Below are positions 3,709 through 60,710 of a DNA stretch of 64,000 nt, one piece after another. The translations under genes were made by a program, and so were the position numbers. The stretch's first letter is position 1. Each line of letters starts with the position of its first letter. The notes beneath the pieces are model-generated. The model was not told where the DNA came from. It saw only the letters and a program-made list of their open reading frames with translations, and ran no database searches. The DNA is from Elusimicrobiota bacterium. GTDB taxonomy: Bacteria > Elusimicrobiota > Elusimicrobia > Elusimicrobiales > UBA9959. The stretch is taken from assembly GCA_009773155.1 (NCBI GenBank), contig WOVA01000001.1, forward strand, positions 104,035 through 168,034, given 5' to 3'.

Positions 3709-4971
3709 ATGAAAAAAACATCCCTTTTCGCGCTGCTATTCGTACTCCTGACGGCCCTGGCGGGCGCGCCGGCATCCGCGGAAGAAATAACCTGGGAGCA
3801 ATGCGTGCGCGAGGCGCTGGCCAACAACCCGTCGCTGAGCGCCAGGAGGCTGGCGATAGAGCAGAACAGGCATACTTACCTGTCCGGCTATAACGCTTTC
3901 ATGCCCAATATCAGCCTGTCCCATTCGGTAAGCCGCAGCGGCGGGGACGGCTCGGACGCCTCCACCAGCTGGCGGGCGGGCATCTCGGCCACGGAGACCC
4001 TGTTCAATCTTAAGACCTTCTCCTCCATAAGGTCCTCCAAGCTGGGCTATGAGAAGGCCGAGGCCGATTACAGGGCGGAATCCGCCTCGCTGCGCCTGAC
4101 GCTCTACTCCGCCCTCGTCAATCTGCTCTTCGCGCAGGAGCGGCTGGCGGCGCAGGAAAAAGTGACGGAACTGCGCGGCCAGAACGCCCGCCTCATAAAA
4201 CTCAAGTACGAGAGCGGCATGGAGTCGCGCGGGAACATGATGCACGCCGACGCCCTCCACGAAGTGGCCCTGGCCGACACGGCCAAGGCCCGGCGCTCGC
4301 TGGAGACGGCGCGCCGCGACCTGCTGGCCGCGATGGGGACCTCCGGGTACCGGCCCCTGACGGTCCGCGGGGAGCTCTCCTCCCCGGAGTACGAGCTGGA
4401 TACGCGGGACCTGCGGCCCCTGATCGAGGCTTCGCCGCGGATAATCTCGCAGCGGAAGAGCCTCAGCGTGCAGGAGGAGCGGCTGCTGTCGGCGAAATAC
4501 GACGCGGCCCCAAGCCTGAGCGCCAGCCAGTCCATGAGCTGGAGCGGACCCTACGAGTTCCCCGACCGGAGAAGCTGGTCGCTGGGCCTCTCCCTCAGCG
4601 TGCCGCTATTCTCCAACGGCCCTACTTACTACCTGCACAATACCGCCTCGGCCAGGGCGGCGCTCAAGGCCGCCGGGGAAAGCCTGCGCGGCACGGTGCT
4701 GGACCTTGAGAACAATATCCTCGGCTATTACGACGAGTTCCTCAACGCCGTCCAGACGGCGGCGGCGCACGTCAGGATCCTGGAAGCCAGCGAGGAGCGC
4801 TACAAGGAATCGCAGATCAAGTACATGGCGGGAAAAATGAGTTTTCTCGACCTGGAGACGATAGAGCAGAACCTGGTAAGCGCGCGGCTCAACCAGCTGG
4901 AATACCTAAAGAACGCCAACACGCGCAAACTGGCCGTCGAGAACCTGCTCGGCGTGGGCCTCGGCGACTGA
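3709..4971 (+). CDS. TolC-family outer membrane efflux protein
   Basis: Signal peptide MKKTSLFALLFVLLTALAGAPASA. Two-repeat OEP-like sequence with coiled regions. First gene of a TolC/adaptor/MacB trio. ATG at 3709 preferred over TTG at 3703. Confidence 0.8.
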   Translation: MKKTSLFALLFVLLTALAGAPASAEEITWEQCVREALANNPSLSARRLAIEQNRHTYLSGYNAFMPNISLSHSVSRSGGDGSDASTSWRAGISATETLFNLKTFSSIRSSKLGYEKAEADYRAESASLRLTLYSALVNLLFAQERLAAQEKVTELRGQNARLIKLKYESGMESRGNMMHADALHEVALADTAKARRSLETARRDLLAAMGTSGYRPLTVRGELSSPEYELDTRDLRPLIEASPRIISQRKSLSVQEERLLSAKYDAAPSLSASQSMSWSGPYEFPDRRSWSLGLSLSVPLFSNGPTYYLHNTASARAALKAAGESLRGTVLDLENNILGYYDEFLNAVQTAAAHVRILEASEERYKESQIKYMAGKMSFLDLETIEQNLVSARLNQLEYLKNANTRKLAVENLLGVGLGD

Positions 4972-4987
4972 CAAGGAACAAAGATCT

Positions 4988-5986
4988 ATGCTGAAAAAGA
5001 ACCTCAAGAAACTCGTCGTTTTGATAGTCGCGGCGGCCGCCGCCGCCGGCGGCTGGTGGTATTTTTCAAAGAAAAAAGCGGGCGGCGAGGAAGTGCGCTA
5101 CGCCTCCACGGCCGCCTTCGTAAAGGAACTGGCCGAGTACGTGGAGACCACCGGCGGCGTGGAGCCGCTCAACCGCATAGAGATACAGCCCTCCTCGAGC
5201 GGCCGCATCGAGAAGATACTGGTGGAAGAGGGGCGCAGGGTCGCCCTGGGCGAGACGCTGGCGCTGATGAGCTCGGCCGACCGCGTGGCGATACTGGACT
5301 CCGCCCGCGCGATGGGCGACGAGCAGTTCAATTACTGGCAGGAGGCCTATAAGCCCATAAAGATCATCTCCCCTATCGAGGGGACCGTCATACTCAAGAA
5401 CGTAGTCGAGGGCCAGACCGTCGGCGCGAACACCGTGCTGTTCGCCATCTCCGACCGCCTCATCGTCGCCGTCGGCGTGGACGAGTCCGACATAGGCCGC
5501 GTAAGAACGGGGCAGCTCGCGGAGATAATACTCGACGCCTACCCCGACAGCCGCGTAAAGGGCTCCGTATTCCAGATACTCGACGAGGGCAAGAACCAGA
5601 GCAATGTCATCACCTATACCGTCAAGATACGCCCCGCCCGCGTGCCGGACTTCTTCAAATCGCAGATGACGGCCAACATAAAGATACGCGTCACCGAACC
5701 AAAGCCGGCGCTCTTCGTCCCCTCTCGCGCGGTCACGCTGGACGCCTCGGGCGCCACCTCCGTCATCACCGCCCTCGAAAAAGGCAAGCCGGTCCACAAG
5801 AAGGTGGTCACGGGCCTCGACGACGGCGAGCTGGTGCAGATAAAGCGCGGTCTGGAAGAGGGCGAAGCGGTTTTCTACCGCGGCAGGCCCTACCGGCCGC
5901 AGACCGCCAGCGGCGGGACCAACCCGCTCATGCCGCAGCGCGGCAAGATGAGCGGCCAGCAGCGCCGCGCCATGCAGGGCCACTGA
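4988..5986 (+). CDS. Efflux periplasmic adaptor (HlyD/MacA-like membrane fusion protein)
   Basis: N-terminal TM anchor, then barrel-sandwich/beta-barrel type sequence (PIEGTVILKNVVEGQTVG...). Sits between the TolC-like and MacB-like genes. Confidence 0.8.
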   Translation: MLKKNLKKLVVLIVAAAAAAGGWWYFSKKKAGGEEVRYASTAAFVKELAEYVETTGGVEPLNRIEIQPSSSGRIEKILVEEGRRVALGETLALMSSADRVAILDSARAMGDEQFNYWQEAYKPIKIISPIEGTVILKNVVEGQTVGANTVLFAISDRLIVAVGVDESDIGRVRTGQLAEIILDAYPDSRVKGSVFQILDEGKNQSNVITYTVKIRPARVPDFFKSQMTANIKIRVTEPKPALFVPSRAVTLDASGATSVITALEKGKPVHKKVVTGLDDGELVQIKRGLEEGEAVFYRGRPYRPQTASGGTNPLMPQRGKMSGQQRRAMQGH

Positions 5987-7956: not shown

Positions 7957-7959
7957 TAT

Positions 7960-8045
7960 CCGGGGACAGCAGACGTAATTCCCCGAAAACCGTTTAAACC
8001 GCGCCGGGCGGCGGGGCAGAATGGAATTACGCATACTGTCCCCGG
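7960..8045. repeat. Imperfect inverted repeat (23-nt arms) just after the macB stop
   Basis: ccggggacagcagacgtaattcc (7960-7982) versus ggaattacgcatactgtccccgg (8023-8045). The outer 9 nt and inner 9 nt of each arm are complementary. Confidence 0.5.
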
Positions 8046-8062
8046 ATTGTTATAATTTGGAT

Positions 8063-9508
8063 ATGGTCAAACTATCCCGTCTCAACGCCAATCTTCTCAA
8101 AGCCCATTACGCCGTGCGCGGCAAGATAGTCATCCGCGCCCAGGAGCTGGAAAAGCAGGGCCGCCACATAACCTACTGCAATATCGGCAATCCCCAGGCC
8201 CTCAAACAGCGGCCGCTCACTTTCGTCCGGCAGGTCCTGGCCCTCGTGGAATATCCGGAACTGCTCGACAGGCCGGAAACGGCCGTCGTCTTCCCCGCCG
8301 ACGCAGTGCGCCGCGCCCGCCTGATACTGGAGAAGAACCCCACCGGCATGGGCGCCTACACGCAGAGCGCCGGCATGCCTTTTATACGGCAGGCCGTGGC
8401 CGATTTTATCTCCAAGCGCGACGGCATACCGGCCGACCCGGACCGGATACTGCTGACCGACGGGGCCAGCAAAGGCGTGCAGTCGGCCATGACCATGCTG
8501 ACCCGCGGCCCGGACGACGGGTATATGATACCCATACCGCAGTACCCCCTCTACAGCGCCACGATAGACCTCTACGGCGCGCGGCAGGTCAACTATTTCC
8601 TCGACGAGGCCAACGGCTGGCAGCTCAGCGAGGCCGAACTGCGGCGCTCCGTGGACGAGGCCCGGGCGCAGGGAGTCAATCCGGTCGCGATAGCCGTCAT
8701 CAACCCGGGCAACCCGACGGGCGCCGTCCTCTCGCGCGAGAACATCATCATGGTCGTACGCTTCGCCCGGGAGAACGGCCTGGCCATACTGGCCGACGAG
8801 GTCTACCAGGAGAACATCTACGGCGAGGGCCTCAGATTCCACTCCTTCGCCAGGGTCATGCACGAACTGGGCGAGAAGGAAGTGACCCTTTTCAGCTTCC
8901 ATTCCGTCTCCAAAGGTTTCCTCGGCGAGTGCGGCCACCGCGGCGGCTACATGGAAGTCCGCAATATGCCCGACGATGTCTGGGCCGAACTGGTCAAACT
9001 CCAGTCGATAGGCCTCTGCTCCAACACCACCGGGCAGGTGGTGACCTATCTCATGATAGACCCGCCTAAGTCCGGCGACGAGAGTTTCGCGCTCTACGAG
9101 AAGGAAAAGAACGCCATACTCGGCGATCTTAAAGAGAAGGCCGGCATACTGGGTGCGGGGCTCGACTCCATCGAGGGGATGAGCGTGGCCGTGCCGCAAG
9201 GCGCCATGTACGCCTTCGTGAAGTTCGACCTGCCGCATCCCGACGGCACCGATCCGGAGAAGATGAGCCCGGCCGAGCGCCACAAGTACGAATCGTCCCG
9301 CGACTCCAAGTACTGCCTGCGCCTGCTGGAAGAGACCGGCATCTGCGTGGTTCCCGGCTCGGGCTTCGGCCAATACCCCGGCACGCTGCATTTCCGCACC
9401 ACCTTCCTGCCGCCCAGGGACGAGATCAGCGCGCTCGTGGAGAAAATACGCAAGTTCCACGCCTCCTACCGGGCCAGGCTGCTGCAGGGCACCGTTAAGT
9501 CCGCCTGA
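8063..9508 (+). CDS. Alanine aminotransferase (class I/II aminotransferase, eukaryote-like ALT subgroup)
   Basis: HYAVRGKIVIRAQELE N-terminal motif and PLP-lysine context SFHSVSKGFLGECGHRGGY. Start at 8063 (MVKLSRLN...) fits family N-termini better than the track start at 8021. Confidence 0.85.
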   Translation: MVKLSRLNANLLKAHYAVRGKIVIRAQELEKQGRHITYCNIGNPQALKQRPLTFVRQVLALVEYPELLDRPETAVVFPADAVRRARLILEKNPTGMGAYTQSAGMPFIRQAVADFISKRDGIPADPDRILLTDGASKGVQSAMTMLTRGPDDGYMIPIPQYPLYSATIDLYGARQVNYFLDEANGWQLSEAELRRSVDEARAQGVNPVAIAVINPGNPTGAVLSRENIIMVVRFARENGLAILADEVYQENIYGEGLRFHSFARVMHELGEKEVTLFSFHSVSKGFLGECGHRGGYMEVRNMPDDVWAELVKLQSIGLCSNTTGQVVTYLMIDPPKSGDESFALYEKEKNAILGDLKEKAGILGAGLDSIEGMSVAVPQGAMYAFVKFDLPHPDGTDPEKMSPAERHKYESSRDSKYCLRLLEETGICVVPGSGFGQYPGTLHFRTTFLPPRDEISALVEKIRKFHASYRARLLQGTVKSA

Positions 9509-19278: not shown

Positions 19279-20934
19279 TCACCGGGCGCCTCCGCTGACG
19301 CAGGCGGAATGGCAGGCGCCGTGGCAGGCCGAATGGCAGGCGCTGTGGCAGGCAGAGTGGCACGCGTCGTGACAGGCCGAATGGCACGCGTCGTGGCAGG
19401 CGTCGCGCCCGAAGGCCCCCTCGTAGCAGGACTTCGAGGTCCTGAAGGTCGCGAAATCCAGGGCGGCGGCGTCGCCGAGCGAACCTTTCAGCCCCTCGCC
19501 GACGGCGGCGGAATTATCGTAGCGGCTGTCGTCGAGGCGCAGGAAGCGGCGCCTGTAGCCGCCCCAGTACCAGCCTTGATCGGTCCCGGGGCCGGCCGGG
19601 ACGTCGGTCTCGGCCTTTTTCCTGTAATAGGCCTTCGTCTCCTCCAGGTCGGCGTCCCAGATCTTCTGCTCCATACCGGCCGCTATGCTTTTGACCATCT
19701 CTTTAAGCGCGGGCTCGTCCACCGAGCCGTCCGGCTTTATGCCGCCGAGCAGCAGCGTCTCGTAAGGATCGTTGCTGGCGTAGATATGCGGCGGCTTGCT
19801 CACGCGCAGCGGGTCGGTGCCGGTTATCTTAACCAGCCCCTTGCGCTCCATGTTGCCCAGTATCAGCGCGCCCAGTTCGATCAGCGGCAGGCCCAGTATC
19901 ACGCCCGCCTCTATGGGGCTGAGGTCCTTTGCCACCTTGCCCGGCTTGCGGAAAGAGCTGACCTGCGCCTTGGGCGGCTCCCATTCGGTGCCCTCCCAGT
20001 TGACCTCCGAGATGCCGGCCTGCGCCACCAGCATGGAATTGTGCTTGCGCGTCATTATGACGAAAGGCAGCACGCCGAAGAAGACGGCGAAGATCAGCGC
20101 CAGGAAGAGGGTCTCGCCGCGGCTGACCGGGACCGTGGCCAGTACGCCGCCGGGAAAATAGCGGCCAAGGTAATAGCTCTCCGGCGCGGCCCTCCAGGGA
20201 CCTTTCGGCGTGCCGGCCAGCAGACCCGCGGAAGCCATCGTCTGCAGATCGAACACGCCGGCGTCCATATAGGTCTGCGTGCGCATGTGGAACTTAGCGC
20301 CGGCGCCCTTCCTGTGATAGCGCACGGTGAACAGCCGCTCGCCGGCCTCGTTGACCGTCTCGGGATAATCGATGAGGTAGCGCTCGTTCACGAATTTTTC
20401 GGTCATGAACGAGAGACGGGCCGCCGCGGCCTCGCCGGTCTCGCCGGGACCGAGCGGCACGGGATAGACGACCTTCACCGTCATATGCTCCAGCGGCTCG
20501 TCCCACTGCACCGGCGACCAGTTGAAGACCGCCAGGCGCCTGTCGCCGGCCATGGTCTGGGTCAGCGTGCCGGCGGCCTGAAAATCCGCCGTGTAGCGGA
20601 AGAAGAAGGTAATGTCGCCGCCGCCGAACCCGCGGCCGCCGGCCAGGACGATATCGTACTTGCGGCCCGACAGATGGCTTATGTCCAGGCTGTAGCGCTC
20701 GCCGCGGTCGTCCACGGCGTAGGCGCCCGCGCGGTCGAACAGCGGCGGCTCGGCCGCGCCCTCGAAGTAGAAGGCGTGTATCTCGCGCCCGGTCACGCCC
20801 CAGCGCACTGTATAGGCCACCTGGCCGCGCCCGTCGCGGTCCAGGACCACCTCGGTCTCGGTCCATTTAAGGTCGTAGCCGGCCGACGCCAGAGAAGGCA
20901 GGCAGAATAACAGGCAGAAAATCAGTTTTTTCAT
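19279..20934 (-). CDS. Signal-peptide/TM protein (DUF2207-like architecture) ending in a C-terminal (Ala-Cys-His-X)x8 repeat tail
   Basis: Start at MKKLIFCLLFCLPSLASA (ATG 20934, GAGGGG upstream). One clear TM helix (LFLALIFAVFFGVLPFVIM then RKH). LSPIEAGVILG...MERKGLVKI region. C-terminus is GRD-ACHD-ACHS-ACHD-ACHS-ACHS-ACHS-ACHG-ACHS-ACVSGGAR. Confidence 0.75.
   Translation of the reverse strand: MKKLIFCLLFCLPSLASAGYDLKWTETEVVLDRDGRGQVAYTVRWGVTGREIHAFYFEGAAEPPLFDRAGAYAVDDRGERYSLDISHLSGRKYDIVLAGGRGFGGGDITFFFRYTADFQAAGTLTQTMAGDRRLAVFNWSPVQWDEPLEHMTVKVVYPVPLGPGETGEAAAARLSFMTEKFVNERYLIDYPETVNEAGERLFTVRYHRKGAGAKFHMRTQTYMDAGVFDLQTMASAGLLAGTPKGPWRAAPESYYLGRYFPGGVLATVPVSRGETLFLALIFAVFFGVLPFVIMTRKHNSMLVAQAGISEVNWEGTEWEPPKAQVSSFRKPGKVAKDLSPIEAGVILGLPLIELGALILGNMERKGLVKITGTDPLRVSKPPHIYASNDPYETLLLGGIKPDGSVDEPALKEMVKSIAAGMEQKIWDADLEETKAYYRKKAETDVPAGPGTDQGWYWGGYRRRFLRLDDSRYDNSAAVGEGLKGSLGDAAALDFATFRTSKSCYEGAFGRDACHDACHSACHDACHSACHSACHSACHGACHSACVSGGAR
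19300..19401 (-). repeat. Tandem 12-bp coding repeat (about 8.5 units) encoding ACHX tetrapeptides
   Basis: Plus-strand periodicity gcaggcNNaatg/gtg is visible across 19300-19401. Translates on the minus strand to ACHDACHSACHDACHSACHSACHSACHGACHSAC. Confidence 0.9.
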
Positions 20935-20986
20935 CGTACCCCTCGCCGGCTGGAACGGTGCCGCATTTTTCATATAATATAAAAAC

Positions 20987-21081
20987 GGGACGCTGATTAC
21001 TAAATGATTAATTATGCACAGGCACGGATCCCGTCTTGAGCGAAGACCAGAGGGAATTAATCATTTAGTAATCAGCGTCCC
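20987..21081. repeat. AT-rich hairpin element, copy 1: perfect 27-bp inverted repeat with 41-nt loop
   Basis: Left arm gggacgctgattactaaatgattaatt (20987-21013) is the exact reverse complement of 21055-21081. TATAAT lies at 20973-20978 just upstream, and SD GGAGG plus ATG 21099 lie just downstream. Near-identical copy at 60387-60472. Confidence 0.9.
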
Positions 21082-21098
21082 CTAAGCGGAGGACCGAA

Positions 21099-21506
21099 AT
21101 GATCAAGATCGTCAAACAATACAGCGTTTTCCTGCCTAACATCCCGGGCGCCCTGAGCAAGTTCGTGGAACTCTTCTCCAGGGAGGGCGTCAACATCATC
21201 GGCATAGCCTCCGAGATTCGCGACGACTCCGGCATCGTGCGCATCACCGTGGACACCGACCGCAAGATCAGCTACCTGCTGACCAACGCCGGCTTCACCA
21301 CCGTAGAGACGCAGATGATACTCATCGAGCTGCCCGACAAGCCCGGCACCCTCTTCAAACTGACCTCGATGCTGGCGGACAACGGCATCAATATCACCAC
21401 GGTCTACGGCACCACCTACACCGGGTCCATAGGCCACCTGCTGCTCAATGTCTCCGACGCGGGAAAGGCCATGGAGCTGATAAAGGGCATGCTGGAAACC
21501 AAATAG
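21099..21506 (+). CDS. Tandem ACT-domain protein (small-molecule-binding regulatory protein)
   Basis: 135 aa with two ACT-like halves (VFLPNIPGALSKFVELFSREGVNI; IELPDKPGTLFKLTSMLADNGINI). Confidence 0.75.
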   Translation: MIKIVKQYSVFLPNIPGALSKFVELFSREGVNIIGIASEIRDDSGIVRITVDTDRKISYLLTNAGFTTVETQMILIELPDKPGTLFKLTSMLADNGINITTVYGTTYTGSIGHLLLNVSDAGKAMELIKGMLETK

Positions 21507-44672: not shown

Positions 44673-45797
44673 TCACTGCGCGCGCAACGGCATCACTATG
44701 TAGAGGAATTCCTCTCCCTTGACCGGCTTGATAAGGGCCGGGGTGGAGGGAGCGTTGAATTCCATGAGGGCCTTGGCTTCCCCTATATTCCTGAGCACGT
44801 CCATCACGAACTTGGGATTGAAGCTGACCTGCAGGTCCTTGCCCTTGTAGTCGACGTCCGTCTCGTCCTCGAAATCCATGGTCTGGGACGAGGAGTTGAC
44901 TACCAGCACGCCTTTCTTGAAAGTATATTTGACCGCGCCGCTGCGTTCGTTGGAGCAGAGGGAGGCGCGCTTGGTGAGAGCCAGCAGCCGCGCCGTGTCT
45001 ATCTCGACCGAGGTCTCGCGGGTCCTGGGGATGATCTGCTCGTAGGCGGGAAAGTTCCCCTCGATGAGCCTGGAGACGAAGACCGTCTTTGCGATACGGA
45101 ACCCTATCTGGTTGGAGGAGAGGCCCACCGTCAACTCCTCTTTTTCGCCCAGGTCGGCCGCTGTTATGAACTTGACCAGCTCGCCGAGTATCTTGGACGG
45201 CACGATGACCTTGAAATCATTCTTCGCCTTGACTGCCTGGCTGGTGGCGACGGCCAGGCGGCGGCCGTCGGTGGCCACCACCGAAAAAACTCCCTTTTCG
45301 TATTTCCACAGGAGGCCGTTGAGAAAATGCCTCTCGTCCTCGGCGGCGATCGAGAAGAGGGTCCGCGACACCATATCGGCTATGAGGGAGGCGGGAGCTT
45401 TGAAGGAATTGCTTTCGTCCAGGTCGGGGATCACCGGGTAGTCGGCCTTGGGCGCGCCGCTGATCTTGAACCGGGTCTTGCCGGAGAGGATGGAGACCTT
45501 GTTGCCGTCGTCCACGTTCACGTTCACGTCCGCGTCGGGACCGAGGTTCTGTATTATCTCAAGGAACTTCTTTATAGGGACCGTTATGCTGCCGTCCCCC
45601 TTCACCTCCACGTTTATGTGGTGCTTTATGGCCATCTCGAGGTCGGTGAAGACGACCCTGAGACCCTGGTCCTCGGTCTCCATCAGGAAGTTCTGGAGTA
45701 TGGGCAGGGTCCCCGTCTTGGCCGAGACGCCGGCCTGGATGGTCTGTATTCCCCTGATGAGGTTCTCCCGGTTACTATTTATTTTCATCATCATCAT
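44673..45797 (-). CDS. dnaN: DNA polymerase III beta sliding clamp
   Basis: 374 aa with the three-domain clamp pattern (ILQNFLMETEDQGLRVVFTDLE...). Immediately downstream of dnaA. Confidence 0.95.
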   Translation of the reverse strand: MMMMKINSNRENLIRGIQTIQAGVSAKTGTLPILQNFLMETEDQGLRVVFTDLEMAIKHHINVEVKGDGSITVPIKKFLEIIQNLGPDADVNVNVDDGNKVSILSGKTRFKISGAPKADYPVIPDLDESNSFKAPASLIADMVSRTLFSIAAEDERHFLNGLLWKYEKGVFSVVATDGRRLAVATSQAVKAKNDFKVIVPSKILGELVKFITAADLGEKEELTVGLSSNQIGFRIAKTVFVSRLIEGNFPAYEQIIPRTRETSVEIDTARLLALTKRASLCSNERSGAVKYTFKKGVLVVNSSSQTMDFEDETDVDYKGKDLQVSFNPKFVMDVLRNIGEAKALMEFNAPSTPALIKPVKGEEFLYIVMPLRAQ

Positions 45798-45900
45798 CCT
45801 CTATATATAGCCTGTTAATTCTGTTGAAACTGTTGAAACCATCGGGGGAAGTTCTCCTCCTCCCGCCAAACCGGACTGACAATCTTAACAATGGCCGCCT

Positions 45901-45909
45901 TTATCCACA
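45901..45909 (+). promoter_or_regulatory. Perfect DnaA box TTATCCACA in the dnaA-dnaN intergenic region
   Basis: Exact 9-mer 5 nt from the dnaA stop codon. The adjacent direct repeat ctgttgaaa occurs twice at 45823-45840. Confidence 0.7.
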
Positions 45910-45913
45910 GCTT

Positions 45914-47284
45914 TTACTTGTTGCTGACAGACTTTATCTTGGTTATCAAGGTGTTCACCAGTTCGTTGATGAAGAGGTCGGTGTGCACCATATTCTGTAT
46001 CTTATTGCGCGCGTAGATGACCGTGGTGTGGTCCTTGCCGAAGGCGTCCCCCACGTTGGTGGTGGACAGTTCCGTCAGTTCGCAGGCCAGGTACATCGCG
46101 ATCTGGCGCGGCACCACCACCGAGTCCCGGCGCCCCTTGGAGCGCAGGTCCTTGGTGTCGAGCTGGTACTTCTCGGCCACTACGCTTATTATGGTCTCTA
46201 TGCTGATCTTGTCCCCGTCGTCCTGGTTTATACCCATGTGGTCCTTGATTATCCCGCGGACCACGTCTATGGTGGGCTGCAGCCGCATGTTCATGCAATA
46301 GTTGCCGACCGTCAGCAGGCAGCCGTCGAGTTCCCTGATGCTGGTCTTGACGTTCTCGCCTATGAAGTTGACGACGTCGTCGGGTATCTCGAACTTGTAC
46401 TGGTCGCGCTTCTCGCGCAGGATGGCGATGCGGGTTTCCAGGTCGGGCTGCTTCATGTCGGCTATGGTGCCCGAGAGGAAGCGGGAGACCAGGCGCTGGG
46501 CCAGCGAGAGTTCGCGGGGCGGCCGGTCGGAGGTGACCACTATCTGTTTCTTGGATTCGAACAGCGCGTTGAAGGTGTAGAAGAACTCCTCCTCGCTGCG
46601 CTCCTTGCCCATCAGGAACTGTATATCGTCGAGCAGCAGGCAGTCGAGCTTGCGGTACTTGCCGCGGAAGAGTTCGGCCGAGTTGCTCTTGTTCTGTATG
46701 GTGTCGATGTACTCGTTGACGAAATTCTCGCTGGGGGTGTAGATCACCTTGGCCGCCGGGTTGAGGCGCAGTATCTCGTTGGCTATGGCGTGCATCAGGT
46801 GGGTCTTGCCCAGGCCCGGCGGGCTGTAGATGAAGAAGGGGTTGGAGAGGTGCCCGGGTTTCTCGGCCACGGCCTTGGCCGAGTTGTAGGCCCAGCGGTT
46901 GGACGGCCCCACTATGAAGGTCTGGAAGGTGTAGTTGGGATTGAAGGACGAGTGCGCGGCGGCCTGGGGCCTGGATGCCGGCGCGGCCTGGATCTCGGGC
47001 TGCGGGGCGGGCCGGGGCTCCCTGGGGGCCAGCGAGAGGGAATAATCTATCTTATAGTCTTTACCGGAAAGTTCCGAAAGGGCGCGGATTATCACTTCCT
47101 CGTAGCGCTTTTTAATGGTTTCAAATATAAGAGGGTCGGGCACTTCCAGTTTGACCGTATCGCCCTCGATAACAAGCACCGAGACCGGCCTCATCCAGAG
47201 GTCGAAAGGGTCCTTGCCTATTTCCTGCTCGATTTTGACGCAGGCGTTCTGCCAGAGTTCTTTGCTGTTTATTGAGTTATCCAC
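45914..47284 (-). CDS. dnaA: Chromosomal replication initiator protein DnaA
   Basis: Walker A GPPGLGKTHL, box VII/sensor motifs, and a C-terminal DNA-binding domain (PRQIAMYLACELT...FGKDHTTV). GTG start at 47284. Confidence 0.95.
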   Translation of the reverse strand: MDNSINSKELWQNACVKIEQEIGKDPFDLWMRPVSVLVIEGDTVKLEVPDPLIFETIKKRYEEVIIRALSELSGKDYKIDYSLSLAPREPRPAPQPEIQAAPASRPQAAAHSSFNPNYTFQTFIVGPSNRWAYNSAKAVAEKPGHLSNPFFIYSPPGLGKTHLMHAIANEILRLNPAAKVIYTPSENFVNEYIDTIQNKSNSAELFRGKYRKLDCLLLDDIQFLMGKERSEEEFFYTFNALFESKKQIVVTSDRPPRELSLAQRLVSRFLSGTIADMKQPDLETRIAILREKRDQYKFEIPDDVVNFIGENVKTSIRELDGCLLTVGNYCMNMRLQPTIDVVRGIIKDHMGINQDDGDKISIETIISVVAEKYQLDTKDLRSKGRRDSVVVPRQIAMYLACELTELSTTNVGDAFGKDHTTVIYARNKIQNMVHTDLFINELVNTLITKIKSVSNK

Positions 47285-47296
47285 AACTTATCCACA
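47277..47296 (+). promoter_or_regulatory. Two perfect tandem DnaA boxes (TTATCCACA x2) at the dnaA start
   Basis: ttatccaca at 47277-47285 and 47288-47296, in the same orientation, 2 nt apart. Confidence 0.8.
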
Positions 47297-47553
47297 AGTG
47301 TTAATATCGCGGTGTTTTGACTGAAAAACGTATATAAAATAAGCGTTTTATTTGTTAATTATGCTTTCAGGGCTTGACTTAGCAAGACTTGATCAAAAAA
47401 CGCAAAAAGACCCGGTTTTTCCCTGTGCAAAGACGATTTACGGTAAGGAAAATATTACCTTAAATACATAGAGTGTGTCAACAGGGGCCGGAAAATCAGG
47501 CAGGCGCTTTTTAAAGGCAGGCTGAAAGCCCCTTAAAAGGGGCCCGGATGGCT
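47285..47553. other. Putative chromosomal replication origin (oriC) with AT-rich unwinding region
   Basis: Largest non-coding, strongly AT-rich island in the window (for example aaaaacgtatataaaataagcgttttatttgttaattatgc), immediately upstream of dnaA and abutting the DnaA boxes. Confidence 0.7.
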
Positions 47554-60273: not shown

Positions 60274-60386
60274 AGTATAAGAGTGTAGCGCGGGCCGGGC
60301 CGGAAAGTCAGTGTCCGGGGACCCAGGAGGGACCCGGAAAAAGCACCAGCCCGGTCTGGGTCCAACGGCCCAATTGGTATAATTAG

Positions 60387-60472
60387 GGGACGCTGATTAC
60401 TAAATGACTAATTATCCACAGGGGCAGTCTTCACCGCAGGACCGTAATTAGTCATTTAGTAATCAGCGTCCC
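60387..60472. repeat. AT-rich hairpin element, copy 2: perfect 28-bp inverted repeat with 30-nt loop
   Basis: gggacgctgattactaaatgactaatta (60387-60414) is the exact reverse complement of 60445-60472. Extended -10 TGGTATAAT ends at 60383. SD AAGGAG at 60474-60479. Confidence 0.9.
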
Positions 60473-60479
60473 TAAGGAG

Positions 60480-60710
60480 ATGACCATGAAAGACAAGGTT
60501 GCGAAGGTTATAGAGAAGATAAAGCCGATACTGGCGGCCGACGGCGGTTCCGTGGAGCTGGTAGCGGTCGACGAGAAGAGCGGCGTGGTCACCGTGCGCC
60601 TGACCGGCGCCTGCGGCTGCTGCCCCCACGCGGCCATGACGCTCAAGGGCGTGGTGGAGCGCATGGTGCGCGAAGCGGTCCCCGAGGTCAAGGAAGTCAC
60701 CGTCGGCTGA
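60480..60710 (+). CDS. NifU C-terminal-domain-like Fe-S cluster scaffold/carrier protein
   Basis: LAADGGSVELV...LTGACGCCPHAAMTLKG (CxxC) pattern. The true start may be the second ATG at 60486 given the SD spacing. Confidence 0.8.
   Translation: MTMKDKVAKVIEKIKPILAADGGSVELVAVDEKSGVVTVRLTGACGCCPHAAMTLKGVVERMVREAVPEVKEVTVG

Follow-up and report, generated by a model that had tools for sequence, protein, structure and literature searches.

Paired hairpins in the leaders of an ACT-domain and a NifU-domain gene of an Elusimicrobiota bacterium are probably non-autonomous mobile elements of a TIRYT-associated family

How does a long and perfectly paired hairpin come to lie between the TATAAT box and the Shine-Dalgarno (SD) sequence of a gene, and is it a regulatory device of that gene? 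This question is raised by a stretch of 64,000 nucleotides of an Elusimicrobiota bacterium (assembly GCA_009773155.1, contig WOVA01000001.1, positions 104,035 to 168,034; hereafter the window), in which one such hairpin precedes a gene for an ACT-domain protein and another precedes a gene for a NifU-domain protein. The original prediction had described them as copies of a hairpin cassette with flanking logic of its own, which could act in the mRNA leader or as a protein operator. We conclude, with a probability of roughly 0.85, that both hairpins are non-autonomous miniature mobile elements, namely REPIN-like dimers of terminal inverted repeats (TIRs), which belong to a family associated with TIRYT transposases. 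Such a TIR dimer consists of two arms of about 27-35 nt, which begin as TAG/GGGACGCTGATTACTAAATGACTAATT (the slash marks the outer border of the arm), and a short variable spacer. Its full-length relatives are TIRtrons, about 1.1 kb long, with these arms on either side of a RAYT-like gene of the TIRYT type for a Y1/HUH enzyme. Elements of this kind are already known and little studied; what is new here is the host phylum, Elusimicrobia, and the sequence of the TIR.

Copy 1 lies on the forward strand and comprises a left arm of 27 nt at 20987-21013 (GGGACGCTGATTACTAAATGATTAATT), a spacer or loop of 41 nt at 21014-21054 and a right arm of 27 nt at 21055-21081 (AATTAATCATTTAGTAATCAGCGTCCC), followed by a CT(A) flank at 21082-21084. 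The arms form a perfect inverted repeat (100% complementary), and the left one fits the family consensus ATAG/GGGACGCTGATTACTAAATGACTAATT. Copy 2, on the same strand, has a left arm of 28 nt at 60387-60414 behind a conserved TAG flank (60384-60386), a spacer of 30 nt at 60415-60444 and a right arm of 28 nt at 60445-60472, again with 100% complementarity. The surroundings of the two copies are alike. A TATAAT box, the putative -10 element of the ACT-domain gene, lies at 20973-20978, 8 nt 5' of the left arm of copy 1, and the SD sequence GGAGG at 21088-21092 stands 6 nt before the ATG at 21099 of that gene (21099-21506, forward strand, 135 aa, with matches to Pfam ACT and ACT_8). The corresponding box of the NifU-domain gene lies at 60378-60383, 3 nt before the left arm of copy 2, and the SD sequence AAGGAG at 60474-60479 stands 6 nt before the ATG at 60486 (gene at 60486-60710, forward strand, 74 aa, Pfam NifU with 87 bits). 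All coordinates of copy 1, its anatomy from TATAAT to ATG and the second copy near 60378-60488 were therefore as the original prediction had them. Since a scan for consensus promoters around copy 1 called no full sigma-70-type -35/-10 promoter, the promoter assignment there depends on the TATAAT box by itself.

The similarity of the two copies is not accidental. Four occurrences of the 19-mer GACGCTGATTACTAAATGA of the arms in the window, against 0.00 expected and none in 100 shuffles, exclude chance. Copies 1 and 2 share their arms and about the first 12 nt of the spacer (AT-CACAGG, found in L019 as well), and the remaining spacer is unrelated between them. Their arms differ at a single position, which is mirrored on the partner arm (T..A in copy 1 and C..G in copy 2) and is one of few symmetric variants in the whole family.

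The most direct evidence on their origin comes from orthologous sites in relatives. The closest relative found for copy 1 is L098 (GCA_032251015.1), which agrees with the window in gene order and whose ACT protein is 96% identical. Its site lacks the element and reads TATAATATCAAAATAGCGGAGACGGAGTTAGCGGAGGACCAAAATG (...ATTTTTATTATAATATCAAAATAGCGGAGACGGAGTTAGCGGAGGACCAAAATG), with the TATAAT box, the SD sequence and TAGCGGAGGACCAAAATG around the latter all kept. For copy 2, two syntenic relatives, whose PHP-domain neighbour is 91% (L108) and 88% (L109) identical, likewise have empty sites, GCTATAATT-TAAGCGAGAGTTG-AAGGAGA and GCTATAATT-TACACGAGGGTTG-AAGGAGA, respectively; a further locus, L103, has a filled site identical to copy 2. 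L103 and contigs that break at the element were all that we reached by looking up the 74-aa NifU-domain product from 60486, which is on record as an exact protein. Exact look-ups of a 76-aa start variant and of the ACT protein of the window gave no record, and the ACT protein has 383 homologues, the majority from Elusimicrobia. Among the fetched loci, no further empty sites beyond L098 and L108 turned up, as expected, because these loci had been selected for carrying the repeat. As the relatives keep the same TATAAT and SD sequences at their empty sites, the promoter and the ribosome-binding site belong to the host genes, and both window copies are insertions into short 5' leaders that existed already. 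The idea of a cassette that brings its own flanking signals thus does not hold. These sites also bear on the first alternative, namely that the hairpin is a dedicated cis-regulatory leader (RNase III site, stabiliser or translational gate) that was duplicated together with promoter and ribosome-binding site. It agrees with the position of both window copies and of a third copy, upstream of alr in L016/L019, between a TATAAT box and an SD sequence or start codon. The flanks of the window copies, though, lie outside the repeat, and the distance from TATAAT to the arm is inconstant (8 nt in copy 1, 3 nt in copy 2 and 11 nt in the alr copy).

The repeat is widespread. In one scan of species-representative genomes, the exact 19-mer was present in 21 loci, which came from about nine metagenome-assembled genomes (MAGs) of Elusimicrobia with 53-65% GC and from one MAG of 42% GC labelled Verrucomicrobia, and one scan of metagenome contigs added 76 loci. 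Collecting arms with up to four mismatches gave 220 arms on 98 sequences, among them 55 hairpin-type dimers (50 unique) and 110 unpaired arms, so that the count of copies suggested with the original prediction shows a repeat spread across Elusimicrobia assemblies. In the dimers, 1-172 nt separate the 21-nt terminal cores. The consensus from 194 unique arms is ATAG/GGGACGCTGATTACTAAATGACTAATTATTAACA; the AG/CT just outside the arms is kept in 160-173 of them, and conservation extends inward to about position 27; the positions beyond the 19-mer query are free of ascertainment bias. The family is dispersed as singles, dimers and groups, including an array of three dimers beside a TIRYT gene in L086. 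A literature search with the arm sequence itself returned nothing.

Some of these arms lead to a transposase. A gene for a Y1/HUH tyrosine transposase of about 320 aa stands between such arms, or close variants of them, at five independent loci, and its stop codon falls within one arm. The arm of copy 1 is also found beside the Y1 genes of L001 and L021, where two arms lie 1.1 kb apart around a single gene (L001 3829-4927, 320 aa; L021 1375-2542, 326 aa). According to tblastn, the transposase gene adjoins arms in L047 and L086 too, and the arms of the window are identical over 21 nt to those at the Y1 genes of all these four loci. Both the L001 and the L021 protein match Pfam Y1_Tnp (PF01797; 35.3 and 31.7 bits, respectively, versus a cutoff of 23) and carry the HUH motif PNHFHLL and the tyrosine motif QNRYK. 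The C-terminus of the L001 protein resembles Bac_DnaA_C (PF08299) with 27.5 bits, under the cutoff of 31.5 (E = 3e-6), and this Pfam domain was not detected in the L021 protein. A protein search yielded 5732 homologues at E <= 1e-40 among 8000 candidates scored. The best of them are mostly from Elusimicrobia, many with PF01797 plus PF08299 and others with PF01797 alone; TIRYT proteins often seem to carry a C-terminal helix-turn-helix like that of DnaA domain IV. Many homologues are found on contigs of about 1.1 kb that hold just the transposase gene between its TIRs, as expected if assemblies break at repeated ends. Two distant homologues (49-50% identity) have diverged arms, too: that in L110 is bordered by an arm variant with one to two mismatches, and that in L112 by a different TIR, GTAGGGACGTTGTTGAGTTGTTGA, which keeps only the TAGGGACG terminus. 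This gradation from L001 and L021 over L110 to L112 hints that TIRYT proteins and their TIRs diverge together. In L001, L021, L110 and L112, TIRs of 21-28 nt border the gene, stem-loops of the repetitive extragenic palindromic (REP) type being absent there, and the stop codon of the transposase lies inside the 3' arm.

This arrangement was named TIRtron/TIRYT by Di Nocera, De Gregorio and Rocco (2013; PMC3733652), who described the TIRs as dispersed singles, dimers and groups. Proteins of this kind were assigned to subclass 2.1 of the TnpA_REP-like proteins, with C-termini of the Bac_DnaA_C, HTH_23 or HTH_28 type (Quentin et al., 2018; PMC6006769). A canonical REPIN, that is a doublet of GTAG-type REP sequences served by a RAYT of group 2 or 3, would also give an extragenic, hairpin-forming inverted doublet, and the RAYT-like gene bordered by repeats, the cluster beside it in L086 and the name 'REP element-mobilizing transposase RayT' that the JGI gives to some homologues all suit it. 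We assign it next to no probability. The single arm, GGGACGCTGATTACTAAATGA, contains no palindrome and lacks a GTAG or CGTC tag, the protein of about 320 aa has an extra C-terminal domain and scores under the cutoff of the NCBIfam RAYT model, and both cited studies set TIR-flanked genes apart from REP-flanked RAYTs (PMC3733652; PMC6006769).

How the arms vary also separates these readings. Variants in the 50 dimers are mostly one-sided: the asymmetric and symmetric cases number 18 and 0 at position 20, 17 and 3 at position 22, and 21 and 4 at position 25. This suggests that the arms are recognised singly as sequence, like transposon ends, rather than as an RNA helix maintained by compensatory change. 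Pairing between the halves is thus not kept in the way that a REPIN would call for. For a dedicated leader hairpin, it is a point in favour that the one difference between copies 1 and 2 is mirrored, and the mostly non-compensatory variation across the family is a point against.

Moreover, no target-site duplication was found: in the 50 dimers, no direct repeat of at least 4 nt flanked the element at boundary offsets of 0-5, and repeats of 3 nt were at chance level. This fits a Y1/HUH enzyme and speaks against a classical miniature inverted-repeat transposable element (MITE), i.e., an internally deleted insertion sequence of a DDE transposase that moves by cut-and-paste with target-site duplication. 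TIRs, small size, multiple copies and intergenic location speak for such a MITE, but the duplication is missing under any definition of the boundaries and the only gene found between such arms is of the Y1/HUH and not of the DDE type, which leaves the classical MITE scarcely credible. The original prediction had kept a plain MITE as its alternative, to be favoured by copies scattered without positional bias toward 5' leaders. The mobile, multicopy nature and the lack of a leader bias bore this out, and the word plain did not survive, as the arms are tied to a Y1 transposase.

The lack of bias is seen from the genes around the copies, which were called throughout the loci by a simple program based on a three-periodic Markov model; it matched the database calls for L098 and the window. 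Among the 50 unique dimers, 32 were classifiable: 19 lie between tandem, eight between convergent and five between divergent genes, and none lies inside a gene. As background, neighbouring genes in these loci form 255 tandem, 59 convergent and 56 divergent pairs. Many copies follow the stop codon of the upstream gene by 0-13 nt. The five divergent cases comprise the two window copies, the alr-upstream copy (L016/L019) and that of L083, which makes three loci beyond duplicates. With eight convergent copies that have no leader whatever and 19 tandem ones, the suggested preference for 5' leaders was not borne out. The convergent copies and the many copies right after stop codons are, like the arms that border transposase genes, difficult to reconcile with a dedicated leader hairpin.

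The predicted RNA folds of the two copies are very stable (-53.8 kcal/mol, z -8.4, for copy 1 and -51.1 kcal/mol, z -9.2, for copy 2), as are those predicted for single-stranded DNA (-33 kcal/mol, z -10.2, and -31.5 kcal/mol, z -12.7, respectively). Perfect and stable stems favour a leader function. On the other hand, the SD sequence is unpaired in the predicted RNA fold of both copies, which makes direct occlusion of translation unlikely. The search of the whole window against Rfam at gathering thresholds gave no match, and in E-value mode the two elements hit only models of miRNA precursors, with 16-36 bits against cutoffs of 83-200. Taken together, we consider a dedicated regulatory leader hairpin very unlikely, even though the copy shared by L016 and L019 is conserved at least as well as its flanks (3 differences in its 92 nt, with flanks about 90% identical).

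Old insertions are shared by other assemblies as well: one is common to L003, L066 and L080, whose flanks are 83-88% identical, and assemblies that share an insertion were also grouped as L016, L019, L067 and L090. In these shared old insertions, with flanks 9-17% diverged, the outermost 22 nt of the arms have hardly changed (a single substitution, in the left arm of L016), while inner arms and spacers vary.

Several of our observations weigh against the mobile-element reading. No TIRYT is known from experiments to move anything, and it is the presence and absence of the element at orthologous sites that suggests mobility. At the filled sites, 13-16 nt of the empty ones are missing, namely CGGAGACGGAGT and neighbours for copy 1 and TAAGCGAGAGTTG for copy 2 (window 20979-20986/21082-21087 compared with L098 3966-3990, and window 60384-60386/60473 compared with L108 and L109), a loss that one would not expect from a peel-and-paste mechanism. 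For copy 1, the difference in length could alternatively come from a lineage-specific duplication in L098, where TAGCGGAG is present twice, 7 nt apart; for copy 2, L108 and L109 agree on the extra bases. Old insertions with unchanged ends imply selection on the ends or homogenisation. At least 27 perfect base pairs are found in only six of 49 dimers, both window copies included. The terminus GGGGACGC fits the GGGGWSAS terminus, which is that of the majority of published TIRYT TIRs and not of all, at 7 of 8 positions (the mismatch being a G in place of A), and the L001 and L021 proteins reach 62 and 60 bits with the NCBIfam RAYT model, below its cutoff of 80. In addition, tblastn with the L001 TIRYT protein found no transposase in the 64-kb window, so the TIRYT link for this genome comes from relatives. 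Finally, the element stands just after a TATAAT box at each of the three loci known from the high-GC lineage of the window (ACT, NifU and, in L016/L019, alr). Three loci are too few to tell a preference for AT-rich targets from selection, and the element may have been locally co-opted as a leader hairpin in this lineage.

With these points taken into account, the mobile-element reading can be put as a sequence of steps, by analogy with IS200/IS605 elements and REP/RAYT systems. The dimer would be moved in trans by a TIRYT. In single-stranded DNA, its two arms would fold into one long hairpin, of which the transposase would recognise the conserved foot, TAGGGGACGC/GCGTCCCCTA, cut there and re-join the ends without duplicating the target. 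Provided that the TATAAT boxes are active -10 elements, the hairpins would lie at the very 5' end of both mRNAs, where a physical effect is plausible, and those of the ACT-domain and NifU-domain genes would start with a stem of 27-28 bp and about -50 kcal/mol that leaves the SD sequence free. A 5'-terminal stem can protect an mRNA from decay that depends on the 5' end. The leader stem could in this way alter mRNA stability or processing, and the perfect 27-bp duplex could be cut by RNase III. Nevertheless, the 5'-leader stem would be a by-product of insertion and not what maintains the family.

A different reading, that of a protein operator, takes the palindrome or a DnaA box within it as the binding site of a regulator such as DnaA. 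The DnaA-box consensus TTATNCACA has five matches in the window versus 0.28 expected. Two of them lie in the hairpins: TTATGCACA at 21012-21020, an exact match made of the last two bases of the left arm and the spacer of copy 1, and TTATCCACA at 60412-60420, a perfect box across the border of arm and spacer in copy 2. The other three, perfect TTATCCACA boxes at 45901, 47277 and 47288, stand beside dnaA (45914-47284, minus strand) and dnaN (44673-45797, minus strand). In that region (44673-47500), the G+C content dips to 0.58, the cumulative GC skew has its minimum at 44-46 kb and an AT-rich stretch lies upstream of dnaA. Three boxes, the dip and the skew minimum by dnaA indicate that the window probably spans the replication origin, which seems to be situated next to dnaA near 47.3 kb. 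An operator would find support in the fact that the hairpins are the only other places in the window with exact boxes, and in the location of these boxes about 30 nt 3' of TATAAT, where a bound protein could block transcription. We regard it as highly improbable in view of the mobility and the scattered positions of the element, and its arms of 27 nt are much longer than typical operator half-sites.

The box itself is instructive across the family. A box-like 9-mer with at most one mismatch is present at arm positions 26-34 in 48 of 189 unique arms; at the other scanned offsets an equally close 9-mer was seen in one arm only, and the background is 3e-4 per position. The box is exact in five of the 189, the commonest 9-mer of the family, TTATTAACA, has one mismatch at the usually conserved C, and the arms beside the TIRYT genes of L001 and L021 have no box, all of which tells against the operator. 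Quentin et al. (2018) found the terminal TIR motif unlike a DnaA box and left open the role of the DnaA-like domain (PMC6006769). BLASTP of the TIRYT C-terminus against domain IV of the DnaA in the window gave a weak match (E = 0.12). One may speculate that the 9-mer is the target of the DnaA-domain-IV-like C-terminus of the TIRYT, or a site for host DnaA through which the replication initiator is coupled with transposition or with the expression of the ACT-domain and NifU-domain genes; in a milder form, the element would have been co-opted in the high-GC lineage and would set mRNA stability as a hairpin of the 5' leader. We think these ideas unlikely, and the connection with the DnaA box is a lead rather than a conclusion.

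A few other features of the arms and their surroundings deserve mention. Three other kinds of element do not fit the hairpins: a CRISPR repeat, because the arms are inverted rather than direct, an integron attC site, because an attC-type R/L box pattern is missing, and an intrinsic terminator, because no T-run follows the stem. The arm holds stop codons in three frames (TGA at positions 8-10, TAA at 15-17 and TGA at 19-21), and a conserved TAG stands immediately outside it, which in L066 and L080 is a stop codon that abuts the arm. An open reading frame terminates inside the arm in L006, L025, L065 and L082, and several upstream genes and every TIRYT gene examined end at or inside an arm. In the Logan contigs L104 and L105, base 1 coincides with the outermost base of the element, which is what one expects of contigs that break at a repeat, and the family is a practical cause of fragmentation in short-read assemblies of Elusimicrobia MAGs. 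Just 5' of several TIRYT start codons, there is a conserved small hairpin, ACCCGACA-N6-10-TGTCGGGT followed by CTGCTATGCTAT (L021 2385-2425, L110 about 1440-1490 and L112 about 1445-1490), which is also found next to a lone arm in L011 (about 4950-5000). It may serve the full-length unit in regulation or as a recognition site. In L098, about 50 nt 5' of the empty site, an extra segment of about 31 nt (3911-3945) is absent from the window; together with the preceding GGGGACGC it gives GGGGACGCcatgcggcctGGGGTCCCC, the 8-nt TIR terminus with a short inverted partner, which could be chance or a relic.

The divergent upstream neighbour of copy 1 is, as predicted, a gene with ACHx repeats on the minus strand (19279-20934, alternatively to 20973). 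Its product of 551 aa has an N-terminus like a signal peptide and a run of ACH(D/S/G) repeats at the C-terminus, and has no Pfam match; the gene is syntenic in L098, where it stands beside a radical SAM gene. The window contains a second inverted repeat, unrelated to the hairpin family, at 7958-8047, with arms of 25 nt that are 88% complementary and a spacer of 40 nt, situated between a stop codon and a TATAAT box (8051-8056) that precedes an ATG at 8063. Its arms hold GGGGACAG, which fits GGGGWSAS exactly, and the repeat may therefore represent a different TIR family. Neither the rest of the window nor the 109 fetched loci contained a further copy.

The family described here should be useful in several respects. 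It supplies clear pairs of filled and empty orthologous sites for the study of TIRYT elements, 50 distinct non-autonomous copies that help to define the conserved ends, and a subterminal motif as a testable candidate for the target of the puzzling DnaA-like domain. For annotation, AT-rich perfect hairpins in the intergenic DNA of Elusimicrobia are probably to be treated as transposon-derived and not as riboswitch-like leaders. The insertions before the ACT and NifU genes offer natural experiments on a perfect 27-bp duplex at the 5' end of a bacterial mRNA.

Compared with known systems, the two leaders resemble those with ompA-type 5' stem-loops or REP sequences that stabilise mRNA, in that a stable stem would stand at the extreme 5' end with the SD sequence free. 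However, ompA-type stems are short, locus-specific and selected, whereas the stem in the window is presumably transposon-derived, a perfect duplex of 27-28 bp and of a length for RNase III. With IS200/IS605 elements (IS608 and ISDra2, which move by peel-and-paste), the family shares a Y1/HUH enzyme with HUH motif and catalytic tyrosine and the absence of target-site duplication. Those elements differ in having distinct subterminal hairpins, no TIRs and insertion beside a fixed tetra- or pentanucleotide; a target of that sort was not evident for our family. The likeness to REPINs and RAYTs (Bertels and Rainey, 2011; PMC3116915) lies in a non-autonomous inverted doublet with a long hairpin that is extragenic and far outnumbers the transposase gene, in a transposase gene that is itself bordered by repeats, and in copies that are in some cases kept at orthologous sites between species. 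In contrast to REPINs, the arms are non-palindromic and have no GTAG, their pairing is not upheld by compensatory change across the family, and the transposase is longer and has a domain like those that bind DNA.

The closest system is that of TIRtrons and TIRYTs. As there, a RAYT-like Y1 gene lies between long TIRs and not REP hairpins, one TIR reaches into the 3' end of the gene, the outer terminus is of the GGGG type, TIRs occur as singles, dimers and groups, and the C-terminal region seems to resemble Bac_DnaA_C. Our family departs from published TIRtrons in its Elusimicrobia host and its new TIR, whose terminus matches seven of the eight positions of GGGGWSAS. Assemblies of 42-65% GC hardly differ in its terminal 22 nt. 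Moreover, about one arm in four has a DnaA-box-like 9-mer in a fixed place, a motif that is absent from the terminal consensus of Quentin et al. (2018; PMC6006769).

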